Source: an uncultured Lentisphaerota bacterium (GTDB lineage: Bacteria; Verrucomicrobiota; Lentisphaeria; Victivallales; UBA1829). From it: a stretch of 64,000 bases of DNA. Positions 706 to 63,135 of the stretch are shown here, piece after piece. Under the pieces are notes generated by a model. It did not search any database and was not told the origin of the DNA. It saw only the letters and a program-made list of their open reading frames with translations. The DNA is taken from positions 31 to 64,030 of the forward strand of contig ONQZ01000005.1 of NCBI GenBank assembly GCA_900320095.1. The letters run 5' to 3'. The translations under genes were made by a program, and so were the position numbers. Each line of letters starts with the position of its first letter. The first letter of the stretch is position 1.

Positions 706-718
706 TTTTGATCTTCAC

Positions 719-755: not shown

Positions 756-837
756 AAAAACCGGGGAGGGAGAAAACGGGGAGGCGTCCGCTTCGATTTG
801 AGGCTGGAAAATGCCCGGGAACGAGGGCACAAAAAAG

Positions 838-910: not shown

Positions 911-1223
911 ACGACAAAAAATACGTGAAACACTATAAAATACCACGTTTTTCCAAAAATGCAAACGTAAAGAGGAAAAAAGCGCGAAAATAAGCTGAAA
1001 GGGACAGGCTTGGAACCATATATTTTTCGGCGCTGATTCCTTCTATTCTTTCGTTTCTCCGCCTTTCGGCATCAATTCGACGCCTTTTTCCCGTTTCCGG
1101 TTTGAAAAATCCCCGTTTCGGCTGTATAATTAATTCACACCGTTTTTTAGAGAATGGACACGCGCGTCTCCCGCCGCCGTCCATGGATTGAATTCAACGC
1201 AAACGATTAGGGATACGGGAATT

Positions 1224-5084: not shown

Positions 5085-5104
5085 CGCACCCGGAGGGAAC
5101 CACC

Positions 5105-6733: not shown

Positions 6734-6866
6734 ACTTTTTTTCGTGTGATTTAGATATTTATCTAAAAAAACTTTCCGCCGCGTTTGAAAAATAAAAAAC
6801 AGCGTGTAAAGTATTAAGATAAATTATATACTTCAACCGCTATCAAAACAATCAGGAACGGAGCGA

Positions 6867-8108: not shown

Positions 8109-8118
8109 GGTCGATTTC

Positions 8119-16752: not shown

Positions 16753-17130
16753 ATGATCGAACTTGATTTCAAGAAGAGCGGCGGACTCATCCCCGCCATC
16801 GCCCAGGACTGGAAGACCGGCGAGGTCCTCATGCTCGCCTACATCAACGAGGAATCCTGGAAAGAGACCCTCAAGACCGGACACGGCGTCTACTGGTCCC
16901 GTTCCCGCTCCAAACTCTGGCACAAGGGCGAAGAATCCGGCAACGTGCAGATCGTGAAGGAGATCCTGGTGGACTGCGACGCGGACACCGTGATCTTCAA
17001 GGTCGAGCAGGTCGGCGGCGCCGCCTGCCACGAAGGCTATCACACCTGCTTCTTCCGCAAGGTCGTCGGCGACAATCTGGAAGTCGTTGGAGAACGCGTC
17101 TTTGATCCCAAAAAAGTTTACAAAAAGTGA
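16753..17130 (+). CDS. hisI: phosphoribosyl-AMP cyclohydrolase
   Basis: GLIPAIAQD...[11 protein letters not shown]...[18 protein letters not shown]...DCDADT...CH match the HisI family. Confidence 0.9.
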
Positions 17131-35213: not shown

Positions 35214-36170
35214 CTACTGCAGTGGAGGACTTGTCCTCCGTGTGTTTCTTTCCCAGAAGACGCCGTCCTCGTAGCCCTGGATCGTTTTGTCGGCGTCCGC
35301 CCGGTGCAGGCGTTCGAGCGCGAGACAGCAGTAGTCGCGGTCCTGTTCGATGGCGGTGAACGCCCGCCCGAGCTTCTTTGCCGTGACGGCGGTCGTGCCG
35401 CTGCCGGAGAAGGGGTCGAACACGATGTCGCCGGGGGCGGTCGAGGCGAGGATGAGCTTCGCGATCAGCTTTTCGGGTTTCTGCGCCGGGTGGTCGGTGT
35501 TTTCCGGCATCGACCAGAAGGGCACCGAGATGTCGTCCCAGAAATTCGAGGCGCCGGTGAGGCGGAATTTCCCGCCGGATTCCTCGCTCCAGTCCTTTGG
35601 ACGGCCGTTCTCGCGGTACGGCGCGATCACCTTGCGTTTCATGCGCACGGCGTCGGAGTGGAAGATCGCGGCGTCTTCCGGCGGCGCGACGGCGTACCAG
35701 ATGTCCTCGCAGGCGTTTTTCCAGTTCGATTCCGAGGCGCGTCCCTTTTCGCGCTGCCACGTGATGCGGTTCCTCACGATGAAGTGCTGCCGCAGGATCT
35801 CGAAACACGCCGCGCTGCACCGCCAGTCGCAGCACAGATACACCGCGCCGCCGGGCCGGACCAGACGCTTCACGAGCGGCATCCAGCTTGCCAGATAGTC
35901 GCGGTAGGCGTCCTCGGATCGGCTGTGGAAGGTGGACAGATTGAACGTCTTCGTGAGGTTGTACGGCGGGTCGAGCAGCGCCATCGCAACGAAGGCGTCC
36001 GGCAGATGCGTCATGATCGCCGTGCAGTCGCCCTGAAACACGCGGTTCGCGGCCTCGTCCGGAGTCAATGCGGCGTCCGGCGCGGGCGTGATTTCCCGCG
36101 CCAGAAGCGCTTTCCGTTCGCCGCTCAGGACGATCGTGCGGTTGTTTTTCGCGCGGACTTTCCCCGCCAT
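35214..36170 (-). CDS. site-specific DNA methyltransferase (N6-adenine/N4-cytosine, beta-class order), apparently orphan
   Basis: Motif IV LLDPPYN lies near the N-terminus and motif I FDPFSGSGTTAV near the C-terminus. No nuclease-like neighbour is present. Confidence 0.85.
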   Translation of the reverse strand: MAGKVRAKNNRTIVLSGERKALLAREITPAPDAALTPDEAANRVFQGDCTAIMTHLPDAFVAMALLDPPYNLTKTFNLSTFHSRSEDAYRDYLASWMPLVKRLVRPGGAVYLCCDWRCSAACFEILRQHFIVRNRITWQREKGRASESNWKNACEDIWYAVAPPEDAAIFHSDAVRMKRKVIAPYRENGRPKDWSEESGGKFRLTGASNFWDDISVPFWSMPENTDHPAQKPEKLIAKLILASTAPGDIVFDPFSGSGTTAVTAKKLGRAFTAIEQDRDYCCLALERLHRADADKTIQGYEDGVFWERNTRRTSPPLQ

Positions 36171-38595: not shown

Positions 38596-38786
38596 GGTTG
38601 GTTGTATCCTGTCGGGGTGGGGGTGAAAGATCATGCGCTCCGGCGCGGTCGCTCCTGTTAGGACGTGCTCGTCCGGGCGCGTATGCGTTTTCAAAACCTA
38701 ATATACACGCCGGAAATGCTTTTTCAAACAGGATTCCGCCGAAAAAGCGGGAAAAAGACGACTGCCCGGAATCATCTTCGGGGGAT

Positions 38787-49429: not shown

Positions 49430-49517
49430 ATTAGTGTTTAAGATCGTCGCGCACAATGAAAAAAGTGCTTCGGTGATCGTTTTTGAGCTCAAAATACAAG
49501 ATTTCGAAAGACCGGAC

Positions 49518-50093
49518 ATGACTGAATCGTACAACACGACATGCATGCAGAGGCATCTCATTGACCTCGGGACAACTGTGCCCCCGTCCCTCCGTGTCTT
49601 CACGCCCGACGCTCTGTTCCGGGAGCAATCCAAGTTCATTTCCGCCTCAATGCAACTTGATTTCGGGCTCCACTGCGCGCTCGTCATGGAGGCTCGCCAG
49701 GCGAACGGCCTGCACTTCTCTATCCGCGCGCAAGCACCCGAGGCGCCTCAATCCCTGTTCGGTTTCACCTCGGCATCCGCCGTGGAGGTCCTGCCTTCCT
49801 TCCGTGTCGCCGTGGAGTTCACGGCCGCCTCGAAGGAAACCCAGCTTTTCGTGTCGTCGCGAAGCACGGCGCTTCCGCAGTGGGGGATTTATCCTCCCAT
49901 TTCGTTCCGCGGCAGCCTCGATTTCGGCACGGTCATTTCCGTTCGCGGCACCTTCGACTTCGTCCGTTCGCTTTCCAGGGCTGCCGCGAAGCGCGCCTCG
50001 GCCTCGGCCGACGCCCTGCGTCGTTCCCGTCGTTTCGAGGTCCGTCACAACAACTGCGGAGGTCTCGCCTCCGGGAGGGCCCTGCGGCTATGA
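49518..50093 (+). CDS. hypothetical protein (191 aa) upstream of the giant repeat protein
   Basis: From about 49600 onward this frame shows host-like GC3-rich codon usage (ctc gtc atg gag gct cgc cag gcg aac ggc ctg cac ttc...). The start was chosen at ATG 49518 (MTESYN). No family was recognised. Confidence 0.45.
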   Translation: MTESYNTTCMQRHLIDLGTTVPPSLRVFTPDALFREQSKFISASMQLDFGLHCALVMEARQANGLHFSIRAQAPEAPQSLFGFTSASAVEVLPSFRVAVEFTAASKETQLFVSSRSTALPQWGIYPPISFRGSLDFGTVISVRGTFDFVRSLSRAAAKRASASADALRRSRRFEVRHNNCGGLASGRALRL

Positions 50094-50446
50094 CTCGTTT
50101 CGTTTCCGCCTCCGCGGCGTCCTTCAATCTCATTTCCGCGTTCGATGCGAAAGCTCAACAAGAGGCCTTCGCCCGGCTTGATACCGCCGGGCGGAGAGTT
50201 CCTGTTGTGTTTTCGCATTTTCTTTTAACCTCTACTTATAATAACATCATCAAGAAAGGAGTCGCAAGGAATCATTCCCTTTCCGCCGGCGGGTCGTCCC
50301 GCCACCTCTCCCACAACCTCAACCAAGGAGGCAAAAACTCTCACTTCGCACGCGGGGTATACACCCCTTCTTTCTTGAAATTCGAACCAATCAATTCTTT
50401 TTCTTATAACCAGCCGTAACCATTCGGCAAAACAAAGGAAAAAACA

Positions 50447-53400
50447 ATGTCTGAATTTACTAAAGACACTTATCTCCTGCAGGAATCCTTCACCGAACCG
50501 ACTATTGATGTACTGATAGATGAAGGTTACAAAGCATACGATCGTTTCGCGGAAGCCTATCTCAACTACAAAAATGAAACGACAAAGCCGGGAACCTTCA
50601 ATGTTTATGGCGGAAGCTATTCCATGAAGAACTCGGAAGTCCCCGTTGAGATCGGGGCGACGAATATGACCATTTCCAGCGCGCTGTACGAAGGCGGGTT
50701 TGTGGAAGCGAACACGAAGTTCGAACTCACGGCCACGAATTTCATCAATAATGGCACGATCAGTATTATTGACGAGTCGGAAGATACTTATTCCGTCACA
50801 TTTAAGAGCAGCAATGCAGAGTTCGTGAACAATAGCAGCGTGACCGTCAGCAACGCCATTTTTGATGTTGCAACCGTTTCGAACGCTGCCAATGCCACGT
50901 TCGCTCTGACCAATGGCGCCGTGTTCACCGCCGCAAGCGTCACCAACAGCGGTTCCTTCTCTCTGGACAATGCCGCGTTCACCGCCACGACCGTCAACAA
51001 CAACGCCGGTGCCACCTTCAATCTGACGAATGATGCTTCTATTGAACTCGCCGCCGTTACCAACGACGGTACCTTCAATATTGTCAAAGGCAATGTCGCT
51101 GGAAAATTCAGCGGTACTGGCACCATTGAGATCAACACCAATACTCTTGAGGCCAATACTATCGATATTTCCGGTACCGGTACCGTCAACCTGAAAGGTA
51201 TCGCCAGCTCCAAGTATGTTAAGCTCGGAAGTGCAAAAATCGAAGCTGCGACTATTTCCTCCACCAAGCGTGTCGATCTGGATGGTGCTACGCTGAAAGC
51301 CACTACGGCCACTCTTGCCGATATGAGACTTTCCGGAACCAATACTTTTGATTTTGGAAGCCTCACCGCCGGTACGCTCTACATGATGGCAAACAGTCAG
51401 ATCAAGGGTTCTAATATTGGTTCCGAGTCCGGCACGAAAGCTACGATCCAGTCCTGGTCTTCGAATCCTACGGTTTCCATCTCTGGCGAGAACGACCTTT
51501 ATGCGACCATTACGAACAAAGGCACTCTCAACATTGCTGCTGCGGGAAAAATCTATACGGCTTCGATCGTGAACTCCGGTGCAGACTCCAAGATCATCAG
51601 CGACGGTGCGAACGTTGTCCTCGGTTCTGAGGAGAAGAGGGTCAGCCTTTCGAACACCAAAGGCCTTATCGGTCTGGAACACAACGCAACCGTCGTTGCG
51701 TCCTCCATCTCCGGCGACAGCGGCGCCACGTACGAGATCACTGATTCCTCTGTCACTGCGGAATCCCTTTCTCTTACCTCTTCCTGCGCATTTGTCGTCG
51801 AAGGCGTAAGCTCTCTGAATATTGGCACTGTCTCCAGCAACAGCACGATCACACTTCAGAAAGCCACCATCTCTGCTTCCTCCATCAGCGGCGGCAAGGT
51901 CAGCATCCCCAAGCAATATGATACCGGAAACGGAACTCCCGAAGAGCCGGCAATGGCTGACAACACCGTTACGTTCAGCGGCGATAACAGCATCCTCTCC
52001 ACCATCACCAACAACGGCGCGATCATCGTCAACGACACGCTGACTGCCGGTGCTGTCACCAACAACGGCGCGATCACCGTCAACGGCACGCTGACTGCCG
52101 GTGCTGTCACCAACAACAGCGGCAGCTCCCTCACGCTCGCCAAAAACGCTACCCTGAATGCTTCTTCTCTGACGGTCGATGGCGGCTCCCTCTCCCTGGG
52201 AGTGGGCAGCACCGTGGATCTCGGCGAAGAAGGCGATCTCATCAGCAGCGTTGGCCTCACCATCACGTCTGCAACTGTGATTGCCGACGAGATCAAGGCA
52301 GAAGGGAAAGCCCTTTCTTTCGTTACGTCCAATATCACGGCTAATACGATTACCGCCAACACTGCTGAGGTTCGTGGCAATGCGACCATGGATGTCGGTA
52401 CCATCGGCGATACAGTTATGACGATCAAGAGCATTAATGTAGACAAACGCACGACGATCACGGACAGCTCGATCGGTACTGGTTCTGTCAACACTCTGCT
52501 CAATGTTGATTTCGTTGGAACGAACACCTTCGATGCTATCACCAACGGAGGCAAAGTTACTGTTTCCGGTTCCCTGACCGCGACCAGCATCACCAATGGC
52601 GAAAACGCTACCTTCACCGTTTCCGCCGCCGGCACTCAGCTGAACACCAAGTTCACCGGCACAATCACGTTCGCCGACGGCGCTACCCTCGGCAAATCCT
52701 CCTTCGGTGCGGACAGCGTCATCACCGCCACTAACTTCGCGATTGCGGATGAAGCCGCAGTTACTCTCACGGTTGGCGAAGCCACGAAGCTTAACGCCAA
52801 CATCTCCTCCGGCACGATCAACCTTGTTTCCGGTTTTGACGCTGAAACGGCGCCCGAATGGGACCTCTACCAGCTCATTAATGGTACGATTGGTGATGAT
52901 GTCACGTTTACGGTTGACGGAGTGCAAGCGGGATCCATCAAGCTCGGAGACGAGACCTATGGCCTTATCAAGCTTGATACCGGTCTTTGGCTTACGAAAG
53001 GCCAGGACAACGAGAAGCTTTACATCAATGCCGCTTATGCTGGTTTAACCCCTGGTGCGAAAACTGATGATGGTCACATCTACGGCTACAACGCGTTCAG
53101 CAGCCTGAGAGATCCTGCCCTGTCCTACAACGCCACAGGCGTTGGTCAGGATATCAAAGATGCCGCTAAGAACGCGAAGAATCTCGTCCTCACCGGTTCG
53201 ATCACTGACGGCAGAACCCTGTTCTACACGGATCAGCCCACTGTTACCATCACCACCACCGGCGAGAACGGCGCTTCCTTCACGGAACGCCTCTATCTGA
53301 TGCACGATATCATCTACAAGAAGGAAGGTGACTCCTTCGTAGTCTACGACAAGGACGGCGAAACTCCGATCACTCAAGCCACGCTCCCCGAGTTCATTCT

Positions 53401-56400
53401 CGCTGAAGGCGCCAAGCTGAACGGTGGTTCCATGCTGAAAGTCGGCGAATCGCTGGATAAAGATGATTACAGTGAAGAAACGGGCTTCACGCGTACCGCA
53501 GGCGCGGTCAAACTGACTGTCAACGGCGACATCAAGTCCTTCATTCAGGTCAATCCCTATTCGTCCGTGAAGGTTTCCAAGACCGGTTCCGTGATCAGCG
53601 AGTCTAACGGCACCGGCGTGACCGAGAATGAAGATCGGCAGAGCACCTACATCCGCGTGAACGGCAGCCTGACTGTCAACGGCGATCCTGATGCTGAACT
53701 CAAAGTGCTCCAGTTTAAGATGCAGCGTCTCACCTTCACGGATGGCGGCACCCTGGCGCTGAACAACACGAATGCCCAGTTCAGCCGCATCCGTTTCTAT
53801 GATGAAGGCTTCACCATTCCGACCGGAAAGGCCACGATCACGGTGACGAACTCCATCGTGAACAACTTCGAGAACAATGCTCTCGACAACCTCGAAGGCG
53901 GCTATAACTTCTTCGTTTACGGTGCCTCTGAGACTGCGGCAGTTAAGAGCAAACAGACTGTCGAACTGACTCTCGACAACTCCGAGATGAAAGTCTCGGA
54001 TAAGGCCGTTTTCAATCCGAACGCCAACACCACGATCAACGTCAAGAACGCCTCTACTTTGACCGTTGGCAATGTCACGAACGACGGCGCGATCAATCTC
54101 GAGAATGGAGCCGAGCTCGACGTCAACGGCGCTGTTACCAACAATGCCACTGGCGTCATCAACGTCGGCAAGGCCGGTGACGAGGATGAATCCGAACTGT
54201 TCGCCAACAGCATCGAGAACGCCGGCACGATCACGGTTACCGACTCCACGCTGAATGCGACGGTAGTCAATACCAGTGCGGTTGGCGCAAAATTCACGGT
54301 TGGCGGCACCTCCACGCTGAATATTTCCGGAACCGGCAGCTCGCTCACCGGCACCATCACGCTGGCTGACGGCGCAAACGTCAAGGCGACCATCGCCAGG
54401 GGCGGCACGCTCAATGTTGCGGCTGACACTGCGGCAACTCTCGCTGAGGGTTCTTCTGTTGCTTCCTTGATCACGAACGCCGGTACGCTCACGCTCGATG
54501 GCGTTACGAAGACCGGAAGAATCACGAACAATGGTACGGTTAACGGCAGCGCGAGCACCGTCGGCGGTATCATCAACAATGTCGGAAGCGTCTCCCTCAC
54601 GGGCAAGAGCTTCAGCAGCGTCACGGTCAAAGACGGAACAGTGTCTCTGATCGCCGAAAGTGCTGATACCGGAATCGCGGTCGGTTCGATCACGAACGGC
54701 ACGAAGGGCACAACAAGGGCCGCCGCCATTGACGGAACCTTTGACGCCAATGGCAATGTGACGGGCTCCGGCGCGATCACGAACAACGCCGGCAGCATCA
54801 AAGTCACGGGCAACCTGACCCTGACCCCGAACAGTACGACTGGTGTTCGTCCCGCTATCACCAACGGCTCCATCTATACCTCTGGCAATATTGTTCAGGT
54901 TGGCGTCGGCAGCATTGAGGTCACCGGCGCGCTGACTGCCGGCGACTTCGTGAACAATGCCGGCGCCACGGCTCAGGTCAGCAGCGCCGAGCTCGTCAGC
55001 CTCACGAACAACGGTTCGTTCACCGCCACCAGCGCCGTGACTGCCGGCGCGATCACGAACGGCACCGCGGCAACGACGGATCCCGTCGCTGCTGCTGTGG
55101 AAGGTTCGTTCTCCGCTGCTGGTCTGACCGCTTCCGGCGACCTCGTGAACAACGCCGGTTCCGTCTCCGTCACCGGCAACGCTGTGTTCAAGAAGGACAC
55201 CACTCTGTTTGACATCACGAACTCCGCTTCCGGCCTCACCGGCATCGAGGAGTCTGTCGGCTTCAAGGTCACCGGCGCGCTGACTGCCGGCGACTTCGAA
55301 AACAAGGCCGGCGCCACGGCTCAGGTCGGCAGCGCCGAGCTCTCCAGCCTCACGAACAACGGTTCGTTCACCGCCACCGGCACCGTGACTACCACCGGTG
55401 AGATCGCCAACAGTGAATCTGGCGAAATCATTGTCTCCGGCAAGATCACCGGCGCATCCGTCGGCAACGTCGGCACGATCGAAGCCGGCAGCATTAAAAC
55501 CACCGGTGAATATGGCCTCGGAAACTCCGGCACGATCGGAAGCACCTCCGCGACGGCGATTGAGACCACCATTCTCTCCAACTCCGGCACGATCTATGCA
55601 AGCACTCTGAATGCCGCCAGCATCAACAACAGCTCCGCGACCGCTTCGATCACCGCCGTCAGCATTGAAGGTACTGGCACGGCCAGCCTCATTGAGAACG
55701 CCGGTTCGATCACCGCCACCAACGTGAGCGCTGCCACTGTTTCCACCAATGGCGCATCGTTCACGGTCGGCGGCGAATCCTCCGAGCTGAATATCAGCAA
55801 AAAGCTCACCGGCACCATCACGCTGGCTGACGGCGCAAACGTCACCGCAATGGTCAAGGGCGGCACGCTCGACGTCGAAAACGGTTCCACCGTTTCTCTT
55901 ACCGGCGCCGAAGGCAATACCGCCGCTGTCACGAACCTCGGCAATCTCACGATCGCCGGCGGCACGATCGGCGCTGTCACGAACAAACAGGTAGTTGTTG
56001 ATAAGGATACTGTCAAAGGCACGCTCACCGTCGAATCCGATAAAGCGATTCAGACGGGCGCCTTCACGAACAATGCCATTGTCAACGTCAACTCCGCGTT
56101 CACGGTCAAAGGCAACTTCAACAACCAGGCAGGTGCAACGATCACGATCGATGCCACCAAGTTCGATTTCACGGAATCCAATACCGTGTGTGCCATCGAG
56201 GTGACCGGAACCCTGACGAACGCCGGCGAGATCAGCGTCACCGGTGGTGCTCCGGGAGAATACGACCTCATCGTCAAGAACGACGGCACTGACAAGGGCG
56301 TGTATCTCTACAAGAATAGCGATCCGGATGATCCGGTCGACATGAGCTACCTGCTTGTGTACAGCGATCTTGCAAGCCAGTATAAACCCGGTGAACCGTT

Positions 56401-58780
56401 CCCGTTTGGCGGTCATGAATACGTGTATGCTCTGAGTGCTTTCGCCACTGCCACTGCGATGACGAAGATTGGGGAAGACACCGAAGAGATCGATTTCGTG
56501 ACGCAGAGCGGCACTTATGGCAACCTGAATCTGACCCTCTTTGCCGATCAGGAGATTAACGTCTACGTGGTCAACGGAACCGGCAAAAAGGTCTCCGCCG
56601 ATCTCAACTTCAACAACCTGAGCATTGCTGCGTCCGAGGCTGGGGAAGATGAAGACGTTGGGGCTATCACTTTCAACAATGACGTCGTGACCGGTGCCGA
56701 AGTTGCCAATACGACGGTCGCCATCTCCACCGCGACGGTCGACTTCCAGGGCGCCAACTTCTCCGCAAGCAAGAGCGTCACCATCAAGGATGATGCGCAC
56801 GTCACGTTCAGCGACGATTTCAGCGCTGCTGCTGCCACCATCACCGGTTCCGAGGTTGTGTTCGGCGGCAATGCCGCCTTCGCCGGCAATGCCGCCATCA
56901 CCGCCGGTTCCGAGGTTTACTTCCGTGATGAAGCGAACTTCGCCGGCACTGCGAACATCAGCGGTTCCACGGTTTACTTCCGTGATGAAGCGAACTTCGC
57001 CGGCAATGCGACCATCAGCGGTTCCACGGTTGCGTTCGGCGGCGCTGCCACATTCTCCAACGGAGAAACGGACGGTGCCGTGAATGCGACCATCAGCGGT
57101 TCCACGGTTGTGTTCGGCGGCGCTGCCACGGTTGAAGGCCTTCTCAAGCTCACCGGATCGGAAGTTACCGCAGAAGCTGAGATTACCGCCAGCTCCACCA
57201 ACCTGGATAAGAATTCTACGCTCAACCTCTCGACGGAAGACGCCAAGCTGGGCGACCTCACGACTGCAGCGGGCAGCAAGATCAACCTGACGTATCAATC
57301 CAAGCTGAGTTTCACAGCTACCGCCGTCCAGGGCAACTTTGACATTGATGTGACCGGCCTCACGAGCACGAAGAACACTGCTTCTGCGACGATCACGGGC
57401 ATTCCCTCTGTCACTAAGGTCTCCATCGTTGGAAACAACACCGAAAACAACGTTGCGAAATACTTCAATTACAACACTGAGAACAAAACCCTCACTCTGA
57501 TCAAAGAAGCCTGCAACGAGATCAAGGTCAACAGCAAGTCGTCCCTCGACAACGCTCTTAAGTATACTTGGGAAGGCGATGATGGCGAGACGTACTACGC
57601 CGACAATGTGATCGTTCAGGATGTGACCTATGCAGACGCTCTGTATTTCGTGAACGCTGCCAGAACGGCTCATGTCAATCAGTACATCACGATTGAGGGC
57701 GGCGAGTTCCAGAAGAGTGTGTTCGGCGGCAAAAAGCAGGAAACTGCGGGCACCGGCAGATTCGATGTCGTTGATCTCGGTGGGAATCTCAACCTCACGA
57801 TTGAAGACGGTCATTTTACAAGGACCGTCGTTGCCGGCGACAACATCAAGGTCAAAGGCCTGTTCTATCGTGAAGGCACGATCACCACGACCATCAGTGG
57901 CGGTACGTTCGACTACAACTTTGCCGGCGGTCTGCTTTACAACCTCACGGATGTTACTTCCCAGGCAATCGTCACGGGCACGAGCCTGACGATCAACAGC
58001 GAAACCGCCGATACAATCTTCAATGATACGGTTTACGGTGGTAACTTCTCGCAGAAGAAGGCCGGTTCCAACTGCACGTTCATTGACGAGAAAGCCATTG
58101 TCAGAATTGAGGCCGGTGAAGAGAATACGATCCAGATGAAAGCTCTGATCGTTGGTTCCTATGGCAACGGCGTCATCGAAAAAGGTACGGAACTTACCCT
58201 GACCGGTAACGGCGACAACCTCGAGATCGAGTCCGTCTGGGGCGGCTGCGGCAGTGATTACTACACGGAAGATGCAAAACGTGAGTATGTCACCACGATG
58301 GCTGCGAATGCGACGAGAACGCTGACGTTCGAAGGCTTCAAAAACACGTTCAACTGCACGTCGATCCGCGGCTTCTCCGATGTCATCGTCAAGTCCGAAA
58401 CGGAAGTTACGCTGATCAACACGGATAAGTACGGCCTGGCCGATGCCAGCAACTGGACGTTCGAATTCGGCAGCTCGCTGAACGGCGCGTTCGCGAACAA
58501 CTTCGCCGGCGACGATCTGACCCTGACCGGAATCGAAGCTATGAAGACGGTAGCTGAAGGTGGGGACCCCTGGGTCATCTGCGACAATATCAACTTCGAG
58601 ACATTCGCTTTCAAGGGTATCAAGAGCATCAACGGTGCTACCGGTGACGACCTCGTGTTTGCCGACAACGCCTACACGTTTGCTGCTGGTGACAACCAGT
58701 ACAAGCTCTCCTTCGGCGATTATAATGTGGGTGAGAGTGAGGAAACGAGCAGCGCCATGTACCTCACGCGTCTTGCCTAA
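50447..58780 (+). CDS. giant (2,777 aa) beta-helix-type repeat protein, adhesin/Pmp-like; no N-terminal signal peptide, no recognisable C-terminal barrel or sorting signal
   Basis: AAAGGAAAAAACA precedes the ATG. There are hundreds of 17-25 aa repeats of the type (T/S)xxNxGxhxh..., including GGA/FxxN-like units (FGGAATFSNG, FRDEANFAGNATI) reminiscent of chlamydial Pmp repeats. The acidic N-terminus MSEFTKDTYLLQESFTEPTIDVL has no hydrophobic h-region. Cys content is very low. Confidence 0.9.
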   Translation: MSEFTKDTYLLQESFTEPTIDVLIDEGYKAYDRFAEAYLNYKNETTKPGTFNVYGGSYSMKNSEVPVEIGATNMTISSALYEGGFVEANTKFELTATNFINNGTISIIDESEDTYSVTFKSSNAEFVNNSSVTVSNAIFDVATVSNAANATFALTNGAVFTAASVTNSGSFSLDNAAFTATTVNNNAGATFNLTNDASIELAAVTNDGTFNIVKGNVAGKFSGTGTIEINTNTLEANTIDISGTGTVNLKGIASSKYVKLGSAKIEAATISSTKRVDLDGATLKATTATLADMRLSGTNTFDFGSLTAGTLYMMANSQIKGSNIGSESGTKATIQSWSSNPTVSISGENDLYATITNKGTLNIAAAGKIYTASIVNSGADSKIISDGANVVLGSEEKRVSLSNTKGLIGLEHNATVVASSISGDSGATYEITDSSVTAESLSLTSSCAFVVEGVSSLNIGTVSSNSTITLQKATISASSISGGKVSIPKQYDTGNGTPEEPAMADNTVTFSGDNSILSTITNNGAIIVNDTLTAGAVTNNGAITVNGTLTAGAVTNNSGSSLTLAKNATLNASSLTVDGGSLSLGVGSTVDLGEEGDLISSVGLTITSATVIADEIKAEGKALSFVTSNITANTITANTAEVRGNATMDVGTIGDTVMTIKSINVDKRTTITDSSIGTGSVNTLLNVDFVGTNTFDAITNGGKVTVSGSLTATSITNGENATFTVSAAGTQLNTKFTGTITFADGATLGKSSFGADSVITATNFAIADEAAVTLTVGEATKLNANISSGTINLVSGFDAETAPEWDLYQLINGTIGDDVTFTVDGVQAGSIKLGDETYGLIKLDTGLWLTKGQDNEKLYINAAYAGLTPGAKTDDGHIYGYNAFSSLRDPALSYNATGVGQDIKDAAKNAKNLVLTGSITDGRTLFYTDQPTVTITTTGENGASFTERLYLMHDIIYKKEGDSFVVYDKDGETPITQATLPEFILAEGAKLNGGSMLKVGESLDKDDYSEETGFTRTAGAVKLTVNGDIKSFIQVNPYSSVKVSKTGSVISESNGTGVTENEDRQSTYIRVNGSLTVNGDPDAELKVLQFKMQRLTFTDGGTLALNNTNAQFSRIRFYDEGFTIPTGKATITVTNSIVNNFENNALDNLEGGYNFFVYGASETAAVKSKQTVELTLDNSEMKVSDKAVFNPNANTTINVKNASTLTVGNVTNDGAINLENGAELDVNGAVTNNATGVINVGKAGDEDESELFANSIENAGTITVTDSTLNATVVNTSAVGAKFTVGGTSTLNISGTGSSLTGTITLADGANVKATIARGGTLNVAADTAATLAEGSSVASLITNAGTLTLDGVTKTGRITNNGTVNGSASTVGGIINNVGSVSLTGKSFSSVTVKDGTVSLIAESADTGIAVGSITNGTKGTTRAAAIDGTFDANGNVTGSGAITNNAGSIKVTGNLTLTPNSTTGVRPAITNGSIYTSGNIVQVGVGSIEVTGALTAGDFVNNAGATAQVSSAELVSLTNNGSFTATSAVTAGAITNGTAATTDPVAAAVEGSFSAAGLTASGDLVNNAGSVSVTGNAVFKKDTTLFDITNSASGLTGIEESVGFKVTGALTAGDFENKAGATAQVGSAELSSLTNNGSFTATGTVTTTGEIANSESGEIIVSGKITGASVGNVGTIEAGSIKTTGEYGLGNSGTIGSTSATAIETTILSNSGTIYASTLNAASINNSSATASITAVSIEGTGTASLIENAGSITATNVSAATVSTNGASFTVGGESSELNISKKLTGTITLADGANVTAMVKGGTLDVENGSTVSLTGAEGNTAAVTNLGNLTIAGGTIGAVTNKQVVVDKDTVKGTLTVESDKAIQTGAFTNNAIVNVNSAFTVKGNFNNQAGATITIDATKFDFTESNTVCAIEVTGTLTNAGEISVTGGAPGEYDLIVKNDGTDKGVYLYKNSDPDDPVDMSYLLVYSDLASQYKPGEPFPFGGHEYVYALSAFATATAMTKIGEDTEEIDFVTQSGTYGNLNLTLFADQEINVYVVNGTGKKVSADLNFNNLSIAASEAGEDEDVGAITFNNDVVTGAEVANTTVAISTATVDFQGANFSASKSVTIKDDAHVTFSDDFSAAAATITGSEVVFGGNAAFAGNAAITAGSEVYFRDEANFAGTANISGSTVYFRDEANFAGNATISGSTVAFGGAATFSNGETDGAVNATISGSTVVFGGAATVEGLLKLTGSEVTAEAEITASSTNLDKNSTLNLSTEDAKLGDLTTAAGSKINLTYQSKLSFTATAVQGNFDIDVTGLTSTKNTASATITGIPSVTKVSIVGNNTENNVAKYFNYNTENKTLTLIKEACNEIKVNSKSSLDNALKYTWEGDDGETYYADNVIVQDVTYADALYFVNAARTAHVNQYITIEGGEFQKSVFGGKKQETAGTGRFDVVDLGGNLNLTIEDGHFTRTVVAGDNIKVKGLFYREGTITTTISGGTFDYNFAGGLLYNLTDVTSQAIVTGTSLTINSETADTIFNDTVYGGNFSQKKAGSNCTFIDEKAIVRIEAGEENTIQMKALIVGSYGNGVIEKGTELTLTGNGDNLEIESVWGGCGSDYYTEDAKREYVTTMAANATRTLTFEGFKNTFNCTSIRGFSDVIVKSETEVTLINTDKYGLADASNWTFEFGSSLNGAFANNFAGDDLTLTGIEAMKTVAEGGDPWVICDNINFETFAFKGIKSINGATGDDLVFADNAYTFAAGDNQYKLSFGDYNVGESEETSSAMYLTRLA
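52007..52108 (+). repeat. tandem 51-nt (17-aa) coding repeat, two near-identical copies
   Basis: ACCAACAACGGCGCGATCAtCGTCAACGaCACGCTGACTGCCGGTGCTGTC is repeated immediately with ~2-3 substitutions (TNNGAIIVNDTLTAGAV / TNNGAITVNGTLTAGAV). Confidence 0.9.
54918..55378 (+). repeat. 348-nt-period duplication inside the giant gene (~113-nt near-identical blocks at 54918-55030 and 55266-55378)
   Basis: AGGTCACCGGCGCGCTGACTGCCGGCGACTTCG...CTCACGAACAACGGTTCGTTCACCGCCACC occurs twice, 348 nt apart, with a handful of mismatches. Confidence 0.9.
56906..57019 (+). repeat. tandem 57-nt (19-aa) coding repeat, two near-identical copies plus degenerate copies to ~57130
   Basis: GSEVYFRDEANFAGTANIS / GSTVYFRDEANFAGNATIS, followed by GSTVAFGGAATFSNG... 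and GSTVVFGGAAT... Confidence 0.9.
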
Positions 58781-58822: not shown

Positions 58823-58969
58823 ATGAAACACATGCAAATCATTGCGCAGGAGCCCTACGAGGCTCCTGCGATCTCCGAAATCGCCCCGGTCACGCTGATT
58901 TACGGGTCTGCCGGGGGCGGTTCCGGAACTGGTGAATCTGATGATAACTCCGAAGGTATTGATGACTGA
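58823..58969 (+). CDS. candidate RiPP-type precursor peptide (48 aa): MKHMQIIAQEPYEAPAISEIAPVTLIYGSAGGGSGTGESDDNSEGIDD
   Basis: Not in the ORF track (under 60 aa). AAGGAAAGGA RBS lies ~12 nt upstream of the ATG. It lies 42 nt after the giant-gene stop and is immediately followed by a strong terminator, then by PqqD/kinase/GT/peptidase genes. The composition is bipartite: a hydrophobic/Pro N-half and a Gly/Ser/Thr then Asp/Glu C-half. Confidence 0.55.
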   Translation: MKHMQIIAQEPYEAPAISEIAPVTLIYGSAGGGSGTGESDDNSEGIDD

Positions 58970-59011: not shown

Positions 59012-59050
59012 TCTGCATTGCGGCGGCAACGCCGCAATGCAGAACTTTTT
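59012..59050 (+). terminator. strong rho-independent terminator/attenuator between the peptide gene and the enzyme genes
   Basis: Perfect 12-bp GC-rich stem TGCATTGCGGCG/CGCCGCAATGCA (extendable to 14 bp) with a GCAA (GNRA) tetraloop, followed by AACTTTTT. Confidence 0.8.
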
Positions 59051-59065
59051 CCAGCCTATTTTACT

Positions 59066-60013
59066 ATGAATTCAAGTGTTCAGGACAGTCAGGAAATCAA
59101 AACGCATCATCAGGCGTACCGCCGGATCGTGTTGAATCTGCACGGCGGCGGTCACATCATATTATGTACAGAACCCCCGGAAGAGAAGATACTGTTTGAT
59201 GGCTTTACGCAGCTTTTATGTATGGAAGCAAATCCTTCCGAACGGGAATCGGGAACATTTGATCTGGAGTTTGTTCCCCCGTCCGAGCTTCCGGAAAAAC
59301 GACATCCGCTGATCAAAACGGCATTGACCGAGGTGGCGTATACGGAGGACTGGAGTCATATTCTGATCGGCGGATGGAAAAAGGCTCCCCATGACAAACA
59401 CTACTATAAAAACTATCTCTGGCTGACGGGACTGATCTTCGCCGGGATGAACGCGCTTTTGCGCGGGGAGAAGGCGGTATTGGTGCATTGTACGGCGCTG
59501 GAGACGGACCGCGGCGTGGTGCTGCTGTTCGGGGAAAGCGGGATGGGGAAAAGCACGGTATCGGCGCGGTGGCGCGCGCACGGAGGGAAATGTATTTCCG
59601 ACGACATGGCGCTGATGGATTTCAGCGGAGGGGATACGGTGTATGTTCGGCGGATGCCGACGTGGAGCGCATGTCGCGAGGGGAAAAATGAGTGGAACTA
59701 CCCGGCTGGGGAGGAACTGCCGTTGATCGGTGTCCTGGCGCTTGGGCGCAATGAGAGCAGGACCGGCGGGGACCAGATCGTGGAATTGAGCGCGGCGCAG
59801 TATTACGCGCAGTGCTACCGGTCGATGTTCTACTGGAACCTGCTTTATGCGGACAAACTGCCGGAGGCGATGCAGCGGCGTCTGGGAGACCGCATCCGGG
59901 CGCTGACGAACATCATCACGGGGAAATACCCGCCGCGTGCGCTGCTGACCGTACTTGAGGGGAATCCGATCCCGGTGATCGAATCCTATCTGGAAAGCCT
60001 TGGTGTGCGATGA
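59066..60013 (+). CDS. HPr kinase-like (HprK C-terminal domain family) serine kinase
   Basis: HCTALETDRGVVLLFGESGMGKSTVSARW...GKCISDDMALMD matches the HprK P-loop plus downstream DD motif. Start moved to ATG 59066 because the track start (TTG 58985) would place the terminator hairpin inside the CDS. Confidence 0.75.
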   Translation: MNSSVQDSQEIKTHHQAYRRIVLNLHGGGHIILCTEPPEEKILFDGFTQLLCMEANPSERESGTFDLEFVPPSELPEKRHPLIKTALTEVAYTEDWSHILIGGWKKAPHDKHYYKNYLWLTGLIFAGMNALLRGEKAVLVHCTALETDRGVVLLFGESGMGKSTVSARWRAHGGKCISDDMALMDFSGGDTVYVRRMPTWSACREGKNEWNYPAGEELPLIGVLALGRNESRTGGDQIVELSAAQYYAQCYRSMFYWNLLYADKLPEAMQRRLGDRIRALTNIITGKYPPRALLTVLEGNPIPVIESYLESLGVR

Positions 60014-61050
60014 AACCGAAAGTGTCGATTATCATCCCCGTGTACAACGGGGAAAAGACTGTGCGGGAAAGCTTGGAATCGGTTTTAACGCAGTCCCTGC
60101 GCGAAATCGAGGTGCTTTGCATCAACGACGGTTCGACGGACGGGACGGCGGCTGTCCTGCGTGAAATGGCCGCGGGCGACAGCCGCGTGCGGCTTTACGG
60201 ATTCGAGAAGAACCATGGGATCGTGCTGGCGGTGAAGACGGGGCTGCTGGAAGCGCGCGGGGACTATGTGATGTTCGTGGACGCGGACGACATCCTGCTG
60301 CCGGGGGCGATCGAGAACGCGGTGCGTCTGATCGAGCAATATGACGTGGACATCCTGCAGTTCGCGATTCGCGTAAAACACCCGAAAGGGGCAAACATCG
60401 GCGCATTCATGAAATCGCTGCAGTGTTTGCCGATGGAATCGTCCGGGGCAAAGATCCTGTACGACTGCTTCTGTATGCACCGGTTCCCGCACAACGTTTA
60501 TACGAAGATCTATCGGAGCAGTGTTTGCCGTACCGCAGCGGAAAACATGCCGGACATTGAGCTTAAACAATTCACGGACCTGTACCTGTCGTTCTTTTTT
60601 CTGTACTTTGCGAAGACATTCCGGAGCGTGGTGGAGGGGCCGTACTACGAATATCGGTTCCTCGGGGCCGGGGTGTTTTCCGCGCCACCGACAGCGTTGC
60701 AATTCGAGCAGATGTGCGCGACAAGCGAAATCCTGCCGCTGATCGAAGAATTCCTTCGGGACCGGCACGAATACGCCGCCCGGAAGTTCCTGGTGGACTC
60801 CATCGGCGTCATCCTGCGATGCGGCGTGCTGGACAAACTGATGGGGCTGCCCGAGATCACGGCGGAGACGATCAAGCTGGCTGAGGAACACTGGGGCAGC
60901 GACCTGATCTACGAATTTATCCGGGAAACCGGGCTGCTTGACGTGCCGTGCGAAACCCGGCGCGGCATCGTAACAAAGCTGGCCGGGGAAAACCGGAAAC
61001 TCCGGAACAACCAAACAACGATAACGATATCAAATACGAAGGGAATCTGA
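60010..61050 (+). CDS. family 2 glycosyltransferase
   Basis: VSIIIPVYNGEKTVRESLESVLTQS...CINDGSTDGT...FVDADD are classic GT2 (GT-A, DxD) blocks. ATGA overlap with the kinase gene. Confidence 0.9.
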   Translation: MKPKVSIIIPVYNGEKTVRESLESVLTQSLREIEVLCINDGSTDGTAAVLREMAAGDSRVRLYGFEKNHGIVLAVKTGLLEARGDYVMFVDADDILLPGAIENAVRLIEQYDVDILQFAIRVKHPKGANIGAFMKSLQCLPMESSGAKILYDCFCMHRFPHNVYTKIYRSSVCRTAAENMPDIELKQFTDLYLSFFFLYFAKTFRSVVEGPYYEYRFLGAGVFSAPPTALQFEQMCATSEILPLIEEFLRDRHEYAARKFLVDSIGVILRCGVLDKLMGLPEITAETIKLAEEHWGSDLIYEFIRETGLLDVPCETRRGIVTKLAGENRKLRNNQTTITISNTKGI

Positions 61051-61052: not shown

Positions 61053-61313
61053 ATGAAACTGAACCCGTTTGCAACGATGGCGCCGCAATTCGACGGAACC
61101 GGCCTGGTATTCGACCCGAACACCAACGCGGCGTTTTCGCTGAACAAGACCGGCGTGTACCTTTGGAACCTGGTGAAAGAAGGCGCGACCGAGGCGGAAA
61201 TGATTTCCGGCCTGTGCGGCAAATACGAGGACGTGAGCGAGTCGCAGGCGGCCGAGGATGTGAGGGCGTTCCTGGAGGATCTTCGAAACCGGTCGCTGGT
61301 GTCGGAGGCGTGA
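61053..61313 (+). CDS. PqqD family protein (RiPP recognition element-like)
   Basis: 86 aa: ...GLVFDPNTNAAFSLNKTGVYLWNLVKEGATEAEMISGLCGKYEDVSESQAAEDVRAFLEDLRNRSLV. This is the canonical PqqD/RRE pattern (beta strands then a winged helix). It starts 2 nt after the GT2 stop. Confidence 0.8.
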   Translation: MKLNPFATMAPQFDGTGLVFDPNTNAAFSLNKTGVYLWNLVKEGATEAEMISGLCGKYEDVSESQAAEDVRAFLEDLRNRSLVSEA

Positions 61314-61320: not shown

Positions 61321-61938
61321 ATGAACGGGCCGGGAACGCCGAAGGAGGCGCATTACACGGGGAACAGCATGCGGGGGGCATTCGTGCCCGGGGAAATCCT
61401 TTTCCTCGCGGAAACGGCCCTTGAAACGCTTCAGATCGGCGATGTGGTCGCGATCTTCGAGCGCACGCCATACTACGTGCACCGGATCGTCGAAAAAGAC
61501 GCGTCCGGCGCCGTCACGATGGGCGACAACAACGACCGTCCGGATTCGCTGAGGCTGACGCCGGACAGCCGGCTCAAACTGGTCGTCCGCGCACGATCTC
61601 TGAACGGGACCGTGCGGCCCGTGCCCGGCGGCGATGCCGGAATGGAGATGTTCCGCCGCCAGCAGCGCAGACGGAAGATGCGGCGGATTGCCGGTTGTCT
61701 GCTTCGCCCGTTCAAGCCGCTGAAATTCCTGCGGCTCCCGGCGAACACGGAAACGCGATTCCGCGACGGAACGGTGCAGTGGAGTTTCGGAAGGATCCCC
61801 GTGGCCGCCGGTGCGCCCGACGGGAAAAGGATGTATCTGCACTGGTCGAAACGTCTGTTTTTCCGGATTCCGAAGCAGGCATCGGGCTCGGCATCCGGGC
61901 AGTCCGCGCAGGAAAAACAAGCCGAAGGAGGGAAATGA
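61321..61938 (+). CDS. S26 (signal-peptidase-fold) serine peptidase-like protein, Ser/His type, without transmembrane anchor
   Basis: GNSMRGAF (nucleophile box), IGDVVAIF...YVHRIV (His where bacterial SPase I has the general-base Lys, as in ER/archaeal/SipW-type enzymes), and MGDNNDRPDS (GDN box). No hydrophobic segment precedes the Ser. The C-terminal half is basic. Confidence 0.65.
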   Translation: MNGPGTPKEAHYTGNSMRGAFVPGEILFLAETALETLQIGDVVAIFERTPYYVHRIVEKDASGAVTMGDNNDRPDSLRLTPDSRLKLVVRARSLNGTVRPVPGGDAGMEMFRRQQRRRKMRRIAGCLLRPFKPLKFLRLPANTETRFRDGTVQWSFGRIPVAAGAPDGKRMYLHWSKRLFFRIPKQASGSASGQSAQEKQAEGGK

Positions 61939-61941: not shown

Positions 61942-63135
61942 ATGAGTTACGATTACGGGATTCCGTCTTGCCTTCTTCAGTTTCTCGGCGCCTGCATGTT
62001 CGGTGATGCCAAAGACTATTACAGCCGTCAGAACGAATCCCGGAGGGGCGAACTGGAATCCGAGGTGAAAAGCTTCGGCCTGACAGCGTGGGCCTACCGG
62101 TATCTGTACGATGCGCTGCCGGAAGCGGAGCGGACGGAATACCGGAAGGACTACCAGGCGCGACAGGTGAAGGCCCTGATGGGATCGCAGGAACTGAAAC
62201 GACTCTATCGCGTGCTGGCGGAGCATCACCTGCGATTCGTACCGATCAAAGGCGCGGACCTGGCATATCGCCTGTACCCGGATACCGCACTGCGCATGTT
62301 CGGAGACTGGGACATCTGGTTCCATCCCGATGACTGTGAACGTGCGCTCTCCGTACTGGCAAACGACGGCTGGAATGCGATGAAAATGTATTCGGACGCC
62401 CAGGATGCCGCATTCAAATCCACAGAACACCATTTCTCTCCGCATGCGCGCGGACCATACGTCATCGAACCGCATTTCACGCTCGCCAACTTCGATGGTA
62501 TTGATCCGCTCGAAATCTGGAAATACACCGTGGAATATCCCGCCGGGGACGGTCAGCGGGTCCTCTCCCCGGAAATGAATCTGCTTATGCTCACCCGCCA
62601 CGCCGCATCCCAGTCGTATTATCATGCCGACATCCCGAAACTGCTTACGGATGCGGCTGTAATAATACGAAACGAAAACATCGATTATGAAGGACTCCGG
62701 AATCTGGCGGCCCGATGGCATCTGCCGTATCCGGGCGACCTGCTGGCGGCTTTCCCCGAGTTCTTCCCCGCCGATGCGATCGCGGATTTCAAGGCGGATT
62801 TGAAGAAAACCGCCGATTTCCGCCGGATCTTCGAACTCCGCGGCAAACTCGGAAAACCCGAAAACGTATCCCTTCTTCTGAGCAGGAATCAAGCACAGGG
62901 ACATGTCGTCGGAGGCGTGCTGGAGGTGATCCGGACTCATAACCCCATCATGATACGCCGAGTGTACCATCTGCCAAAACATGGCGCATGGGACCGGGTC
63001 CTGTGGGGGTATGTCTGCTGGTTCTGGACGCGGGGCTGCCGCGCGGTTTCCGCATGTTTCCGATGGAATCCGAACCTGAAAAAGTATACCGCCCTTGTCG
63101 AGTCCGTGGATTCGACGTCATCCCGGACCAAATAG
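61942..63135 (+). CDS. NTP_transf_5-type 'uncharacterised nucleotidyltransferase' family protein
   Basis: ...LRFVPIKGADLAYRLYPDTALRMFGDWDIWFHPDDCERALSVLANDGW... is the hallmark block of this family (KG..L....Y....R...D.D.....). It starts 3 nt after the peptidase stop. Confidence 0.7.
   Translation: MSYDYGIPSCLLQFLGACMFGDAKDYYSRQNESRRGELESEVKSFGLTAWAYRYLYDALPEAERTEYRKDYQARQVKALMGSQELKRLYRVLAEHHLRFVPIKGADLAYRLYPDTALRMFGDWDIWFHPDDCERALSVLANDGWNAMKMYSDAQDAAFKSTEHHFSPHARGPYVIEPHFTLANFDGIDPLEIWKYTVEYPAGDGQRVLSPEMNLLMLTRHAASQSYYHADIPKLLTDAAVIIRNENIDYEGLRNLAARWHLPYPGDLLAAFPEFFPADAIADFKADLKKTADFRRIFELRGKLGKPENVSLLLSRNQAQGHVVGGVLEVIRTHNPIMIRRVYHLPKHGAWDRVLWGYVCWFWTRGCRAVSACFRWNPNLKKYTALVESVDSTSSRTK

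Follow-up and report, generated by a model that had tools for sequence, protein, structure and literature searches.

We analysed a stretch of 64,000 nucleotides (hereafter the window) from contig ONQZ01000005.1 of an uncultured Lentisphaerota bacterium, in which the largest gene (positions 50447-58780, forward strand) encodes a protein of 2,777 residues that we call the giant. Directly downstream lie a gene for a 48-residue peptide, which resembles the precursor of a ribosomally made and post-translationally modified peptide (RiPP), and then a cassette of genes for putative peptide-modifying enzymes. Giant beta-helix surface proteins and RiPP cassettes are each of an already known kind; what is new here, besides the protein family and the type of peptide, is above all the near-obligate pairing of a beta-solenoid giant with a RiPP-like peptide, and we found no literature on such a pairing. 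The Lentisphaeria, here the Victivallales, are widespread gut and rumen bacteria that are almost unstudied, and to our knowledge their surface architecture is not known; a search for literature on giant proteins of Lentisphaeria also returned nothing. Homologous loci and proteins are numbered L00x and P00xx below, the window locus being L001 and the giant P0001.

The giant is an acidic beta-solenoid protein

The giant gene starts with an ATG codon, and a stop codon upstream rules out any 5' extension of its open reading frame (ORF). Its product is indeed the largest of the window, as had been stated in a first-pass annotation made by a model from the sequence, the second being DnaE with 1,298 residues. 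Since the identical protein is carried on seven independently assembled contigs, the giant is not an assembly artefact. Thr (13.8%), Gly (10.9%), Ala (10.8%), Ser (9.2%) and Asn (8.6%) are prominent in its composition, Ser and Thr together making up 23% of the residues. The protein is also about twice as acidic as it is basic (294 Asp plus Glu versus 153 Lys plus Arg) and contains only seven Cys residues.

AlphaFold2 (AF2) models computed from 8-sequence alignments are beta-solenoids both for the first 560 residues (predicted local distance difference test score, pLDDT, of 69.8) and for the last 640 residues (pLDDT of 74.9), with strand starts spaced by about 18-21 residues and about 19-20 residues per rung. 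Only the N-terminal ~45 residues depart from this fold, showing weak helices that look like a cap. Autocorrelation of the protein sequence gave peaks at lags of 17-20 residues and at their doubles in several segments. At the DNA level, only two tandem arrays were detected in the gene, with units of 51 nt and 57 nt (17 and 19 residues), showing that the repeats are highly degenerate. The beta-helix-type Thr/Asn/Gly/Ser repeats proposed by the first-pass annotation are thus in agreement with the models, the periodicity and the composition. So is its remark that the GC content of this gene is lower and more variable than that of housekeeping genes: it starts at 0.50-0.52 over the first 1.5 kb and rises up to 0.61 in the middle of the gene, compared with 0.62-0.645 for housekeeping genes located at 40.5-46.5 kb, and the GC content at third codon positions is 0.69 versus 0.83-0.91 in most housekeeping genes.

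The giant lacks known export and anchoring signals

The first-pass annotation had reported no export or anchoring signal in the giant, and every search that we made led to the same result. Hydropathy averaged over 19 residues reaches a maximum of 1.35 over the whole protein, which is below the level of a transmembrane (TM) segment, but only 0.05 within the N-terminal 60 residues, and residues 1-30 have a net charge of -5. N-terminal maxima do not exceed 0.83 across all eight homologues, none of which has a signal-like N-terminus or, at any position, a stretch as hydrophobic as a membrane helix. RTX nonapeptides (GGxGxDxUx, PF00353) are represented in the giant by a single chance-like GGCGSDYYT, with no Pfam match. 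More generally, scanning the giant against Pfam gave no match at E<=1, against NCBIfam only a chance-level match to YidC at E=0.4, and searches of PHROG, PADLOC and PDB sequences no match at all. Sorting tails of the LPXTG, PEP-CTERM, GlyGly-CTERM or Por C-terminal domain types were not found in the giant either: it has no TM-level segment, ends in ...AMYLTRLA and matches no such Pfam or NCBIfam model.

Structure comparisons using Foldseek with the N- and C-terminal models returned generic beta-helix proteins only, with no PDB match below an E-value of 1e-3 and TM-scores of at most 0.3. The weak neighbours include the passengers of SepA, EspC, Hbp and pertactin, as well as EtpA, Ag43, RsaA, VacA, ice-binding proteins and tailspikes. 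Since the best, non-significant, neighbours are passengers (SepA, EspC, Hbp, pertactin and Ag43), one may ask whether the giant is a type-5 autotransporter or a protein like the polymorphic membrane proteins (Pmps) of chlamydiae, of which the signal peptide and the barrel would have been missed. We consider this extremely improbable and already largely refuted, as the ORF is not extendable upstream, as no full-length member of the family that was inspected has a signal-like N-terminus, and as the model of the last 640 residues is a solenoid to its very end, with no 12-strand beta-barrel (PF03797). Neither the Pmp repeats (PF02415, TIGR01376) nor the Autotransporter and Chlam_PMP models are among the Pfam and NCBIfam matches of the giant at E<=1. 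The Pmp-like GGA/FxxN units described by the first-pass annotation therefore find no support in these models, the GG-x-F...GG-[DN] rungs of the giant being visible by eye only.

Two other candidates were discarded. A possible double-glycine leader at NVYGG (residues 52-56) corresponds to the 'aGtY' strand of the beta-helix cap, which homologues display without the two glycines. Readings of the locus as a defence system, a phage or a viral contig were rejected given the null results with PADLOC and PHROG and given that viral contigs yielded neither the peptide pattern nor the PqqD protein described below.

A rare protein family shares the C-terminal domain of the giant

Only seven relatives of the giant came out of a word-indexed search that covered 5.8 billion proteins; all have 2,955-3,968 residues and none has a Pfam domain. 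BLASTP comparisons among the homologues revealed a mosaic: the last 300-600 residues are common to all of them and the remainder is barely alignable, apart from a module at residues 773-1286 of the giant (52763-54304, forward strand) that is 62% identical to residues 2842-3347 of P0002, a protein that is otherwise barely related. We then used the last 640 residues of the giant (alignment A1) to build a family profile, which was searched against 1.84 billion cluster representatives. At E<=1e-3 this search gave 319 representatives, of which 150 also passed E<=1e-30, with the domain at the C-terminus in all of them, and it included full-length members of only 740-1,400 residues. Together with the invariant G/F/D/R columns of the alignment and the AF2 model, it delimits a family-defining C-terminal solenoid domain at about residues 2400-2777 of the giant (57644-58777, forward strand, ending in ...SSAMYLTRLA), which is a candidate export or folding module.

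The C-terminus of the family is conserved as ...M-x-L-[ST]-x-x-[LI]-A. Its N-terminus, MAT-x-Y-x-V-N, is a beta-helix cap that was never signal-peptide-like, neither in the eight homologues nor in the Met-starting members among the first 60 representatives that we inspected. As judged from these searches, the giant is a member of a rare and undescribed family that has no model in any library searched. Relatives found via the linked PqqD gene all come from rumen or gut metagenome-assembled genomes, and those that are named are Lentisphaeria, Victivallales or Victivallaceae, which is in line with the Planctomycetes-Verrucomicrobia-Chlamydiae (PVC) origin proposed by the first-pass annotation.

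One member of the family is interrupted: in L007 (13080-13652), P0003 is shortened and the rest of the C-terminal family domain is found in the next ORF (108 residues, SNWTFDVDSTLDGAF...), the break being due either to a pseudogene, through a frameshift or a stop codon, or to an error in sequencing.

A RiPP-like peptide gene follows the giant gene

The giant gene is followed, after a gap of 42 nt, by a gene (58823-58969, forward strand) for a 48-residue precursor-like peptide, MKHMQIIAQEPYEAPAISEIAPVTLIYGSAGGGSGTGESDDNSEGIDD, made of a conserved leader and a variable acidic tail. The homologous peptides share the consensus E-x-YEAP-x-[IV]-x-[DE]-I-x-PV[TS]-x(3-6)-G-[DE]-S, after which comes a variable tail rich in Asp, Glu, Gly and Pro. 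A gene for such a peptide, of 40-56 residues, is located ~10-46 nt downstream of the giant in 17/17 family loci and always in this order, these loci being those of the 8 word-search homologues, of three distant or short representatives (P0012, P0029 and P0134) and of six genome loci. The eight homologues, for instance, are all followed by an ORF of 43-56 residues, and these ORFs are homologous to one another. The linkage was also looked at from the opposite side, using a degenerate DNA pattern that we drew up by hand from the leader of the peptide. This reverse search returned 33 rumen metagenome loci, 31 of which have upstream sequence, and the C-terminal family domain ends just 5' of the peptide gene in 30 of these 31 independently found loci.

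Since the linkage holds from both sides, the adjacency of the giant and peptide genes is not fortuitous, and giants occurring independently of the downstream peptide, which would have spoken against the coupling proposed by the first-pass annotation, were not what we found. The arrangement is kept where the enzyme genes are rearranged (L025), degraded (L002 and L007) or absent. In the locus of P0029, a protein of only 741 residues, the peptide gene is downstream of the family gene and the enzymes are upstream, in the order NTP_transf_5, ABC, ScmC, PqqD, S26-like, X, peptide; in that of P0134, the order is giant, 42-residue peptide, ScmC and PqqD. The giant and the peptide thus form an invariant core, with enzymes that are usually but not always encoded in cis. 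Of the peptide, kinase, GT2 and PqqD genes seen in the window, it is the peptide gene that always follows homologues of the giant, as opposed to the enzyme genes and especially GT2 (see below).

We also compared how the identities of these proteins vary between loci. The rank correlation was of rho 0.55 between the peptide and the C-terminal domain of the giant and of rho 0.48 between the peptide and PqqD, a co-variation that looks too weak to argue for co-evolution beyond linkage. The possibility that the peptide is fused to the giant by read-through or frameshifting was rejected, as the two are in frame in 4/7 loci, which is near chance.

In L013, a giant gene (3-6374), a single peptide gene (6410-6556) and a gene for a second family protein of ~800 residues (6562-9069) are arranged in tandem; one peptide may serve two family proteins in this case.

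The cassette encodes putative peptide-modifying enzymes

Five enzyme or chaperone genes follow on the forward strand. The first (59066-60013) encodes a putative ScmC-type, HprK-like P-loop kinase that has a Walker A motif (GESGMGKST) and a precomputed assignment to Pfam PF27840. It shows weak matches to TIGR04249 (ScmC, 1e-08), TIGR04352 (HprK_rel_A, 9.5e-07), Hpr_kinase_C (0.0067) and PEPCK_ATP (3.9e-4). We found 177 homologues of it, all of them PF27840 proteins; the few that are named are called 'hypothetical protein', and two are from Lentisphaeria bacterium records. It is followed by a family-2 glycosyltransferase (GT2; 60010-61050; PF00535 at 3.8e-34) and by a PqqD-family peptide chaperone, or RiPP recognition element (61053-61313; PF05402 at 4.7e-17 and ScmD at 2.1e-12), which the lasso PqqD models also match at 1.5e-09 and 9.4e-08, below their cut-offs, and which is 100% identical to the PqqD protein of L009 and 53-74% identical to those of other loci. 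Next comes a soluble protein resembling S26 signal peptidases of the endoplasmic reticulum (ER)/archaeal type (61321-61938; TIGR02228 at 2.3e-09, below the cut-off), which lacks a TM segment and which we regard as a candidate leader peptidase; the motifs GNSM and YYVHRIV, of the Ser/His type, can be read from its sequence, and homologues of it follow PqqD in L005, L009, L011, L015, L016, L017, L019, L021 and L025. The last gene (61942-63135) encodes a nucleotidyltransferase of the NTP_transf_5 family (PF14907 at 9.5e-31).

GT2 and NTP_transf_5 are optional members of the cassette, and GT2, NTP_transf_5, the S26 peptidase and an ABC exporter are each absent from some complete cassettes. HlyB/TAP-like ABC exporters are encoded inside the cassettes of L005, L015, L016, L017 and L025, and there is none in the window. 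The ScmC and PqqD genes adjoin in eight of the nine giant-side loci that could be evaluated, the ninth (L002) keeping a 115-residue remnant of ScmC. Among the 18 peptide-side loci that could be evaluated for ScmC, the gene is intact in 11, a remnant in three and absent in four. On the PqqD side, 5/13 genome loci (L015, L016, L017, L019 and L022) have no giant and no YEAP peptide within ~9 kb; these orphan cassettes are composed of ScmC, PqqD, S26-like and NTP_transf_5 genes, often with an ABC exporter, which suggests that the enzymes can serve peptides encoded elsewhere. The cassette of the window contains no radical-SAM gene, and both the lasso cyclase (the Asn-synthetase-like C protein) and the B2 transglutaminase protease are absent from the cassettes of the window, L005, L006, L008, L009, L010, L025 and L027.

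What the cassette acts on is a question for which two candidates lie side by side. It was shown that HprK homologues phosphorylate a Ser of lasso precursors and that an NTP-transferase adds one or more hexoses to this phosphate (PMC8498205; PMC7533575). Because PqqD domains bind short leaders and because the peptide has a leader of the lasso type (Y-x-x-P), the small peptide, rather than the giant, is the likelier substrate. The first-pass annotation had also considered that the giant itself may be glycosylated, and one could extend this idea by proposing that GT2 and ScmC attach sugar or phosphate to its surface, which is rich in Thr, Ser and Asn, with the peptide acting as a trans leader or activator. 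Dedicated glycosyltransferases beside giant adhesins are well known, as for HMW1-HMW1C and AIDA-Aah, the Ser and Thr content of the giant would suit such a modification, and GT2 is present in the window and even duplicated in L005 and L009. GT2 has, however, no copy in the complete cassettes L010, L025 and L027 and no leader-like motif was seen in the giant, so that this proposal is weakened and we now judge it unlikely.

Hairpins precede the giant gene and follow the peptide gene

The giant gene is preceded by a conserved non-coding 5' leader (49500-50446, forward strand), defined by DNA alignment to the upstream regions of L005, L006, L007, L008 and L009. Leader DNA aligns across these loci although the giants of L005-L009 are only ~30% identical. 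A 191-residue ORF found in this region (49518-50093) was rejected as a real protein: it has no Pfam or NCBIfam match and its translation is not conserved between L001 and L005, whereas the DNA is.

About 300-220 nt before the ATG, the leader contains a 76-nt near-perfect extended hairpin (50144-50219) followed by UUUUCUUUU, a U-run (50144-50228, forward strand). Its predicted fold has an energy of -48.4 kcal/mol (z = -8.2), and none of 200 shuffled sequences was equally stable. The core motif of the hairpin, GCGAAAGCWCAACAAGAGG, is located ~300 nt before the ATG in L001/L009, L005 (9705..), L006 (9705..), L007 (2363..) and L008 (3293..), and ~280-300 nt before it in L024 (186..) and L032 (1649..). 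Scanning Rfam gave no match for this hairpin and returned three tRNAs only. We infer that the hairpin could be a terminator or, within this long leader, an attenuator; termination may be conditional, with a requirement for antitermination. An integron attC site or an invertible promoter were rejected as explanations, since there are no conserved flanking inverted repeats, since the hairpin is 220 nt inside a conserved flank rather than at the boundary of the swapped segment described below, and since integrases are found only in some loci. In L006, two NusG paralogues are encoded near the unit (2649-3173 and 3825-4346), which hints at antitermination of the processive type.

A second element, a 14-bp GC-rich hairpin (59012-59043) with a T-run, is found between the peptide gene and scmC (59012-59052 in all, forward strand), with comparable hairpins after the peptide gene in L005, L006, L008, L009 and L027. 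This strong, terminator-like element may be a partial terminator or an attenuator, through which the giant and the peptide would be made in large excess over the enzymes. The shared transcription unit proposed by the first-pass annotation is therefore plausible for the giant and the peptide, given their 42-nt gap, but not in the same way for the enzymes, from which this hairpin divides both genes.

The giant and the peptide are exchanged as a block between strains

Locus L009, which comes from the same sequencing project as the window and has the same flanking genes (HPPK ... E1/E3/E2 ... DeoR), gave us access to strain-level variation. Up to base 50455, which is the ninth base of the giant ORF, the two sequences share 99.1% identity. 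From there to 59481, in the middle of the ScmC gene, they have almost no similarity, the sole match being one of 161 nt at 80% within the giant gene. Beyond 59481, identity is 79% over what remains of ScmC together with most of GT2, and 93% between the GT2 start and 63696. In the protein, ScmC is correspondingly split, with ~20-25% identity over the first 135 residues and ~93% over the last 180. The giant, the peptide and the N-terminal half of ScmC were therefore exchanged as a block between conserved 'handles'. The giant locus is thus hypervariable between strains in a cassette-like manner, as is seen when diversifying selection acts on loci for capsules, O-antigens or adhesins. L005, L006 and L008 are flanked by tyrosine recombinases.

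Such a swapped unit, with its mosaic modules and with a giant filament-like protein directly followed by a tiny variable ORF, is reminiscent of polymorphic toxins or giant bacteriocins that are encoded with a small immunity peptide, as in contact-dependent inhibition (CDI) or Rhs systems. The polarity is nonetheless reversed here, as it is the C-terminal domain that is conserved and the N-terminal bulk that varies. No toxin domain was detected, the conserved half of the peptide is a RiPP-type leader served by PqqD, and no two-partner secretion (TPS), PAAR or Rhs feature was found, so that a toxin-immunity pair is very unlikely.

Alternatively, the giant may be a variable surface antigen and the peptide an independent secreted signal or antimicrobial RiPP, both sharing an island in which they are co-mobile or co-regulated with no physical interaction. 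This would agree with the orphan cassettes, in which maturation genes occur without giant and peptide, with the terminator-like hairpin that divides the enzymes from the two other genes, with a co-variation that is only moderate and with the integrases that flank several loci. The short spacing and the fixed order of the giant and peptide genes in all 17 family loci, even with enzymes rearranged, degraded or absent, are however tighter than co-residence on an island predicts, and we hold mere co-mobility to be rather unlikely.

Several genes around the unit differ between loci. Directly downstream of the cassette of the window, on the opposite strand, lie AAA_14/DUF4143, DUF499 and KAP-NTPase-like genes that are variable and defence-island-like (23387-28334 of L001, which runs past the window end at 64000); at the corresponding place, L009 has HipA/HTH and transposase-like genes instead. 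Large proteins with AIDA/HemolysinCabind (RTX-type) domains are encoded next to the unit in L002 (19127-25822), L005 (2056-6402, reverse strand), L006 (22406-24709) and L026 (2870-5389). One of them also has Peptidase_C10 and CARDB domains, and all four are without the C-terminal family domain.

Other genes of the window

Elsewhere in the window, a 637-residue ORF (17087-19000, forward strand) combines FAD_binding_4 and MurB_C domains with D-Ala-D-Ala ligase domains and is an apparent MurB-Ddl fusion. The three tRNA genes (RF00005) lie at the beginning of the window (534-604 and 621-702 on the forward strand; 838-910 on the reverse strand). An N6/N4 DNA methylase (35214-36170, reverse strand), a GH35 beta-galactosidase that carries an F5/8 type C domain (36184-38694, reverse strand) and a GHL10 glycosyl-hydrolase-like protein (22218-23867, forward strand) fit with a glycan-degrading gut or rumen organism.

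Discussion

The reading that we favour, and to which we give a probability of about one half, is that the giant is a strain-variable, Sec-independent exported fibre that leaves the cell C-terminus first by a type-1-like route, and that its partner is a linear phospho(glyco)peptide acting together with it. The giant is probably surface-exposed and of the adhesin or S-layer kind; we infer its surface location and its export route, as well as the chemistry of the peptide and its physical partnership with the giant. We favour a type-1-like route because the giant is acidic, signal-less and Cys-poor with a conserved C-terminal domain and end, because ABC exporters are encoded in five cassettes, because RTX/AIDA proteins are neighbours in four loci and because RsaA is a weak fold neighbour.

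In this model, the giant and the peptide would probably be co-transcribed behind the ~1-kb leader with its attenuator-like hairpin, and transcripts would largely end after the peptide gene. The giant would be made in the cytoplasm without a signal peptide and then exported C-terminus first, its C-terminal domain and the ...M-x-L-[ST]-x-x-[LI]-A end serving as export signal and folding nucleus, in a process that would resemble the ABC-dependent export of type-1 substrates minus the RTX repeats. The peptide would be a RiPP-type precursor whose YEAP...PVT leader is held by PqqD, so that the ScmC/HprK-like kinase could phosphorylate the nearly invariant Ser of G-[DE]-S and NTP_transf_5 and GT2, where present, could add sugar. 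The soluble S26-type peptidase may then cut off the leader between [VIA]-x-G and [DE]-S, which would fit the -3/-1 rule, and the ABC exporter would release a short polyanionic phospho(glyco)peptide. Once mature, the peptide would work with the giant, for example as a cognate cofactor, a cap or an anchor.

Several points weigh against this reading. The giant has no RTX repeats. No membrane-fusion or TolC-type gene is found in the window or in any locus examined, and the ABC exporter of the cassettes, which matches no curated family above its cut-off, may serve the peptide only. ScmC is far under the curated cut-offs of every kinase family, so that its kinase activity is suggested by the P-loop alone. 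ScmC is absent near four of the 18 peptide loci and five of the 13 PqqD loci lack both giant and peptide, which means that the enzymes would have to work in trans, unless the linkage is less tight than proposed here. Finally, the identity of the peptide follows that of the C-terminal domain of the giant only moderately, as linkage alone could yield, and the identity of the peptide tail does not track that of the N-terminal domain of ScmC (rho -0.02).

Among known systems, type-1 adhesins and S-layer proteins (LapA, SiiE, MpIBP and RsaA) are the closest to the giant: they are very large, acidic, repetitive and without an N-terminal signal, with a conserved C-terminal region and a variable bulk. 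RsaA is also a weak fold neighbour of the giant, and HlyB/TAP-like ABC exporters and RTX proteins are encoded in related loci. The giant differs from them in having neither RTX nonapeptides nor adjacent membrane-fusion protein and TolC genes, and in having a novel C-terminal solenoid with an invariant ...[LI]-A end; we also know of no type-1 adhesin that is obligatorily paired with a RiPP-like peptide gene, as the giant is. Autotransporter passengers and chlamydial Pmps share a right-handed beta-helix, Gly-rich rung motifs and a host of the PVC superphylum with the giant, which, in contrast, has no Sec signal, no barrel and no match to their profile models.

The cassette resembles lasso peptide clusters such as those of paeninodin and pseudomycoidin, which combine a PqqD protein (B1), an HprK-like kinase, NTP_transf_5, an ABC exporter and sometimes GT2, and which have precursors with a leader of the Y-x-x-P-x-L type and a Thr near the leader end; in our family, YEAP-x-[IVL] and PV[TS] are conserved. 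It differs from them in that the cassettes were seen without cyclase or B2 protease, with an S26-type peptidase in that place, in that the spacing from Y to T is 12 instead of 15, and in that the tail is acidic, Gly-rich and not Ser-ending and the peptide is tied to a giant gene. This suggests a possible new RiPP class of linear phospho(glyco)peptides with a lasso-type leader, whose synthesis would involve no cyclase and whose processing would fall to a soluble S26 peptidase. The kinase-like and PqqD proteins find their best family matches in the SynChlorMet (ScmC/ScmD; TIGR04249/04248) and HPr-rel-A (TIGR04352/04353) systems, which are substrate-orphan peptide-modification cassettes, and we found no literature on ScmC or SynChlorMet cassettes. 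Compared with SynChlorMet, scores fall well short of the curated cut-offs (34.9 versus 125 bits for ScmC and 47.1 versus 100 bits for ScmD), the radical-SAM/SPASM proteins ScmE and ScmF are absent and a candidate substrate peptide is evident. Operons of the tapA-sipW-tasA type encode a fibre protein with a dedicated ER-type signal peptidase, and here too an ER/archaeal-type S26 peptidase (GNSM, VHRIV) is encoded beside a fibre-like protein. In our case, however, the peptidase lacks a membrane anchor and the giant a signal peptide, the leader of the small peptide being a likelier substrate.

A bolder proposal, which is speculative and which we regard as having a rather low probability, is that the locus encodes a new export or surface system that PVC bacteria build from two components, a beta-solenoid without a signal and, as its obligate partner, a ribosomal phospho(glyco)peptide guided by PqqD. 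The peptide could then be either a secretion or anchoring cofactor acting in trans or a key, specific to the strain, by which the fibre is capped or attached. If true, the cassette would be an unrecognised route by which giant proteins are placed on the diderm surface, and it would provide the long-sought substrate context for orphan HprK-like/PqqD ('HPr-rel-A'/ScmC-ScmD) systems. Our observations touch on two questions, namely how solenoids of several thousand residues without recognisable signals are exported in diderms and what orphan PqqD and HprK-like kinase cassettes target, for which the YEAP-leader peptide is a concrete candidate. For the Lentisphaeria themselves, the locus is probably a strain-typing surface module and, because this module is swapped wholesale between 99%-identical strains, it likely governs phage/host recognition or attachment to feed particles.

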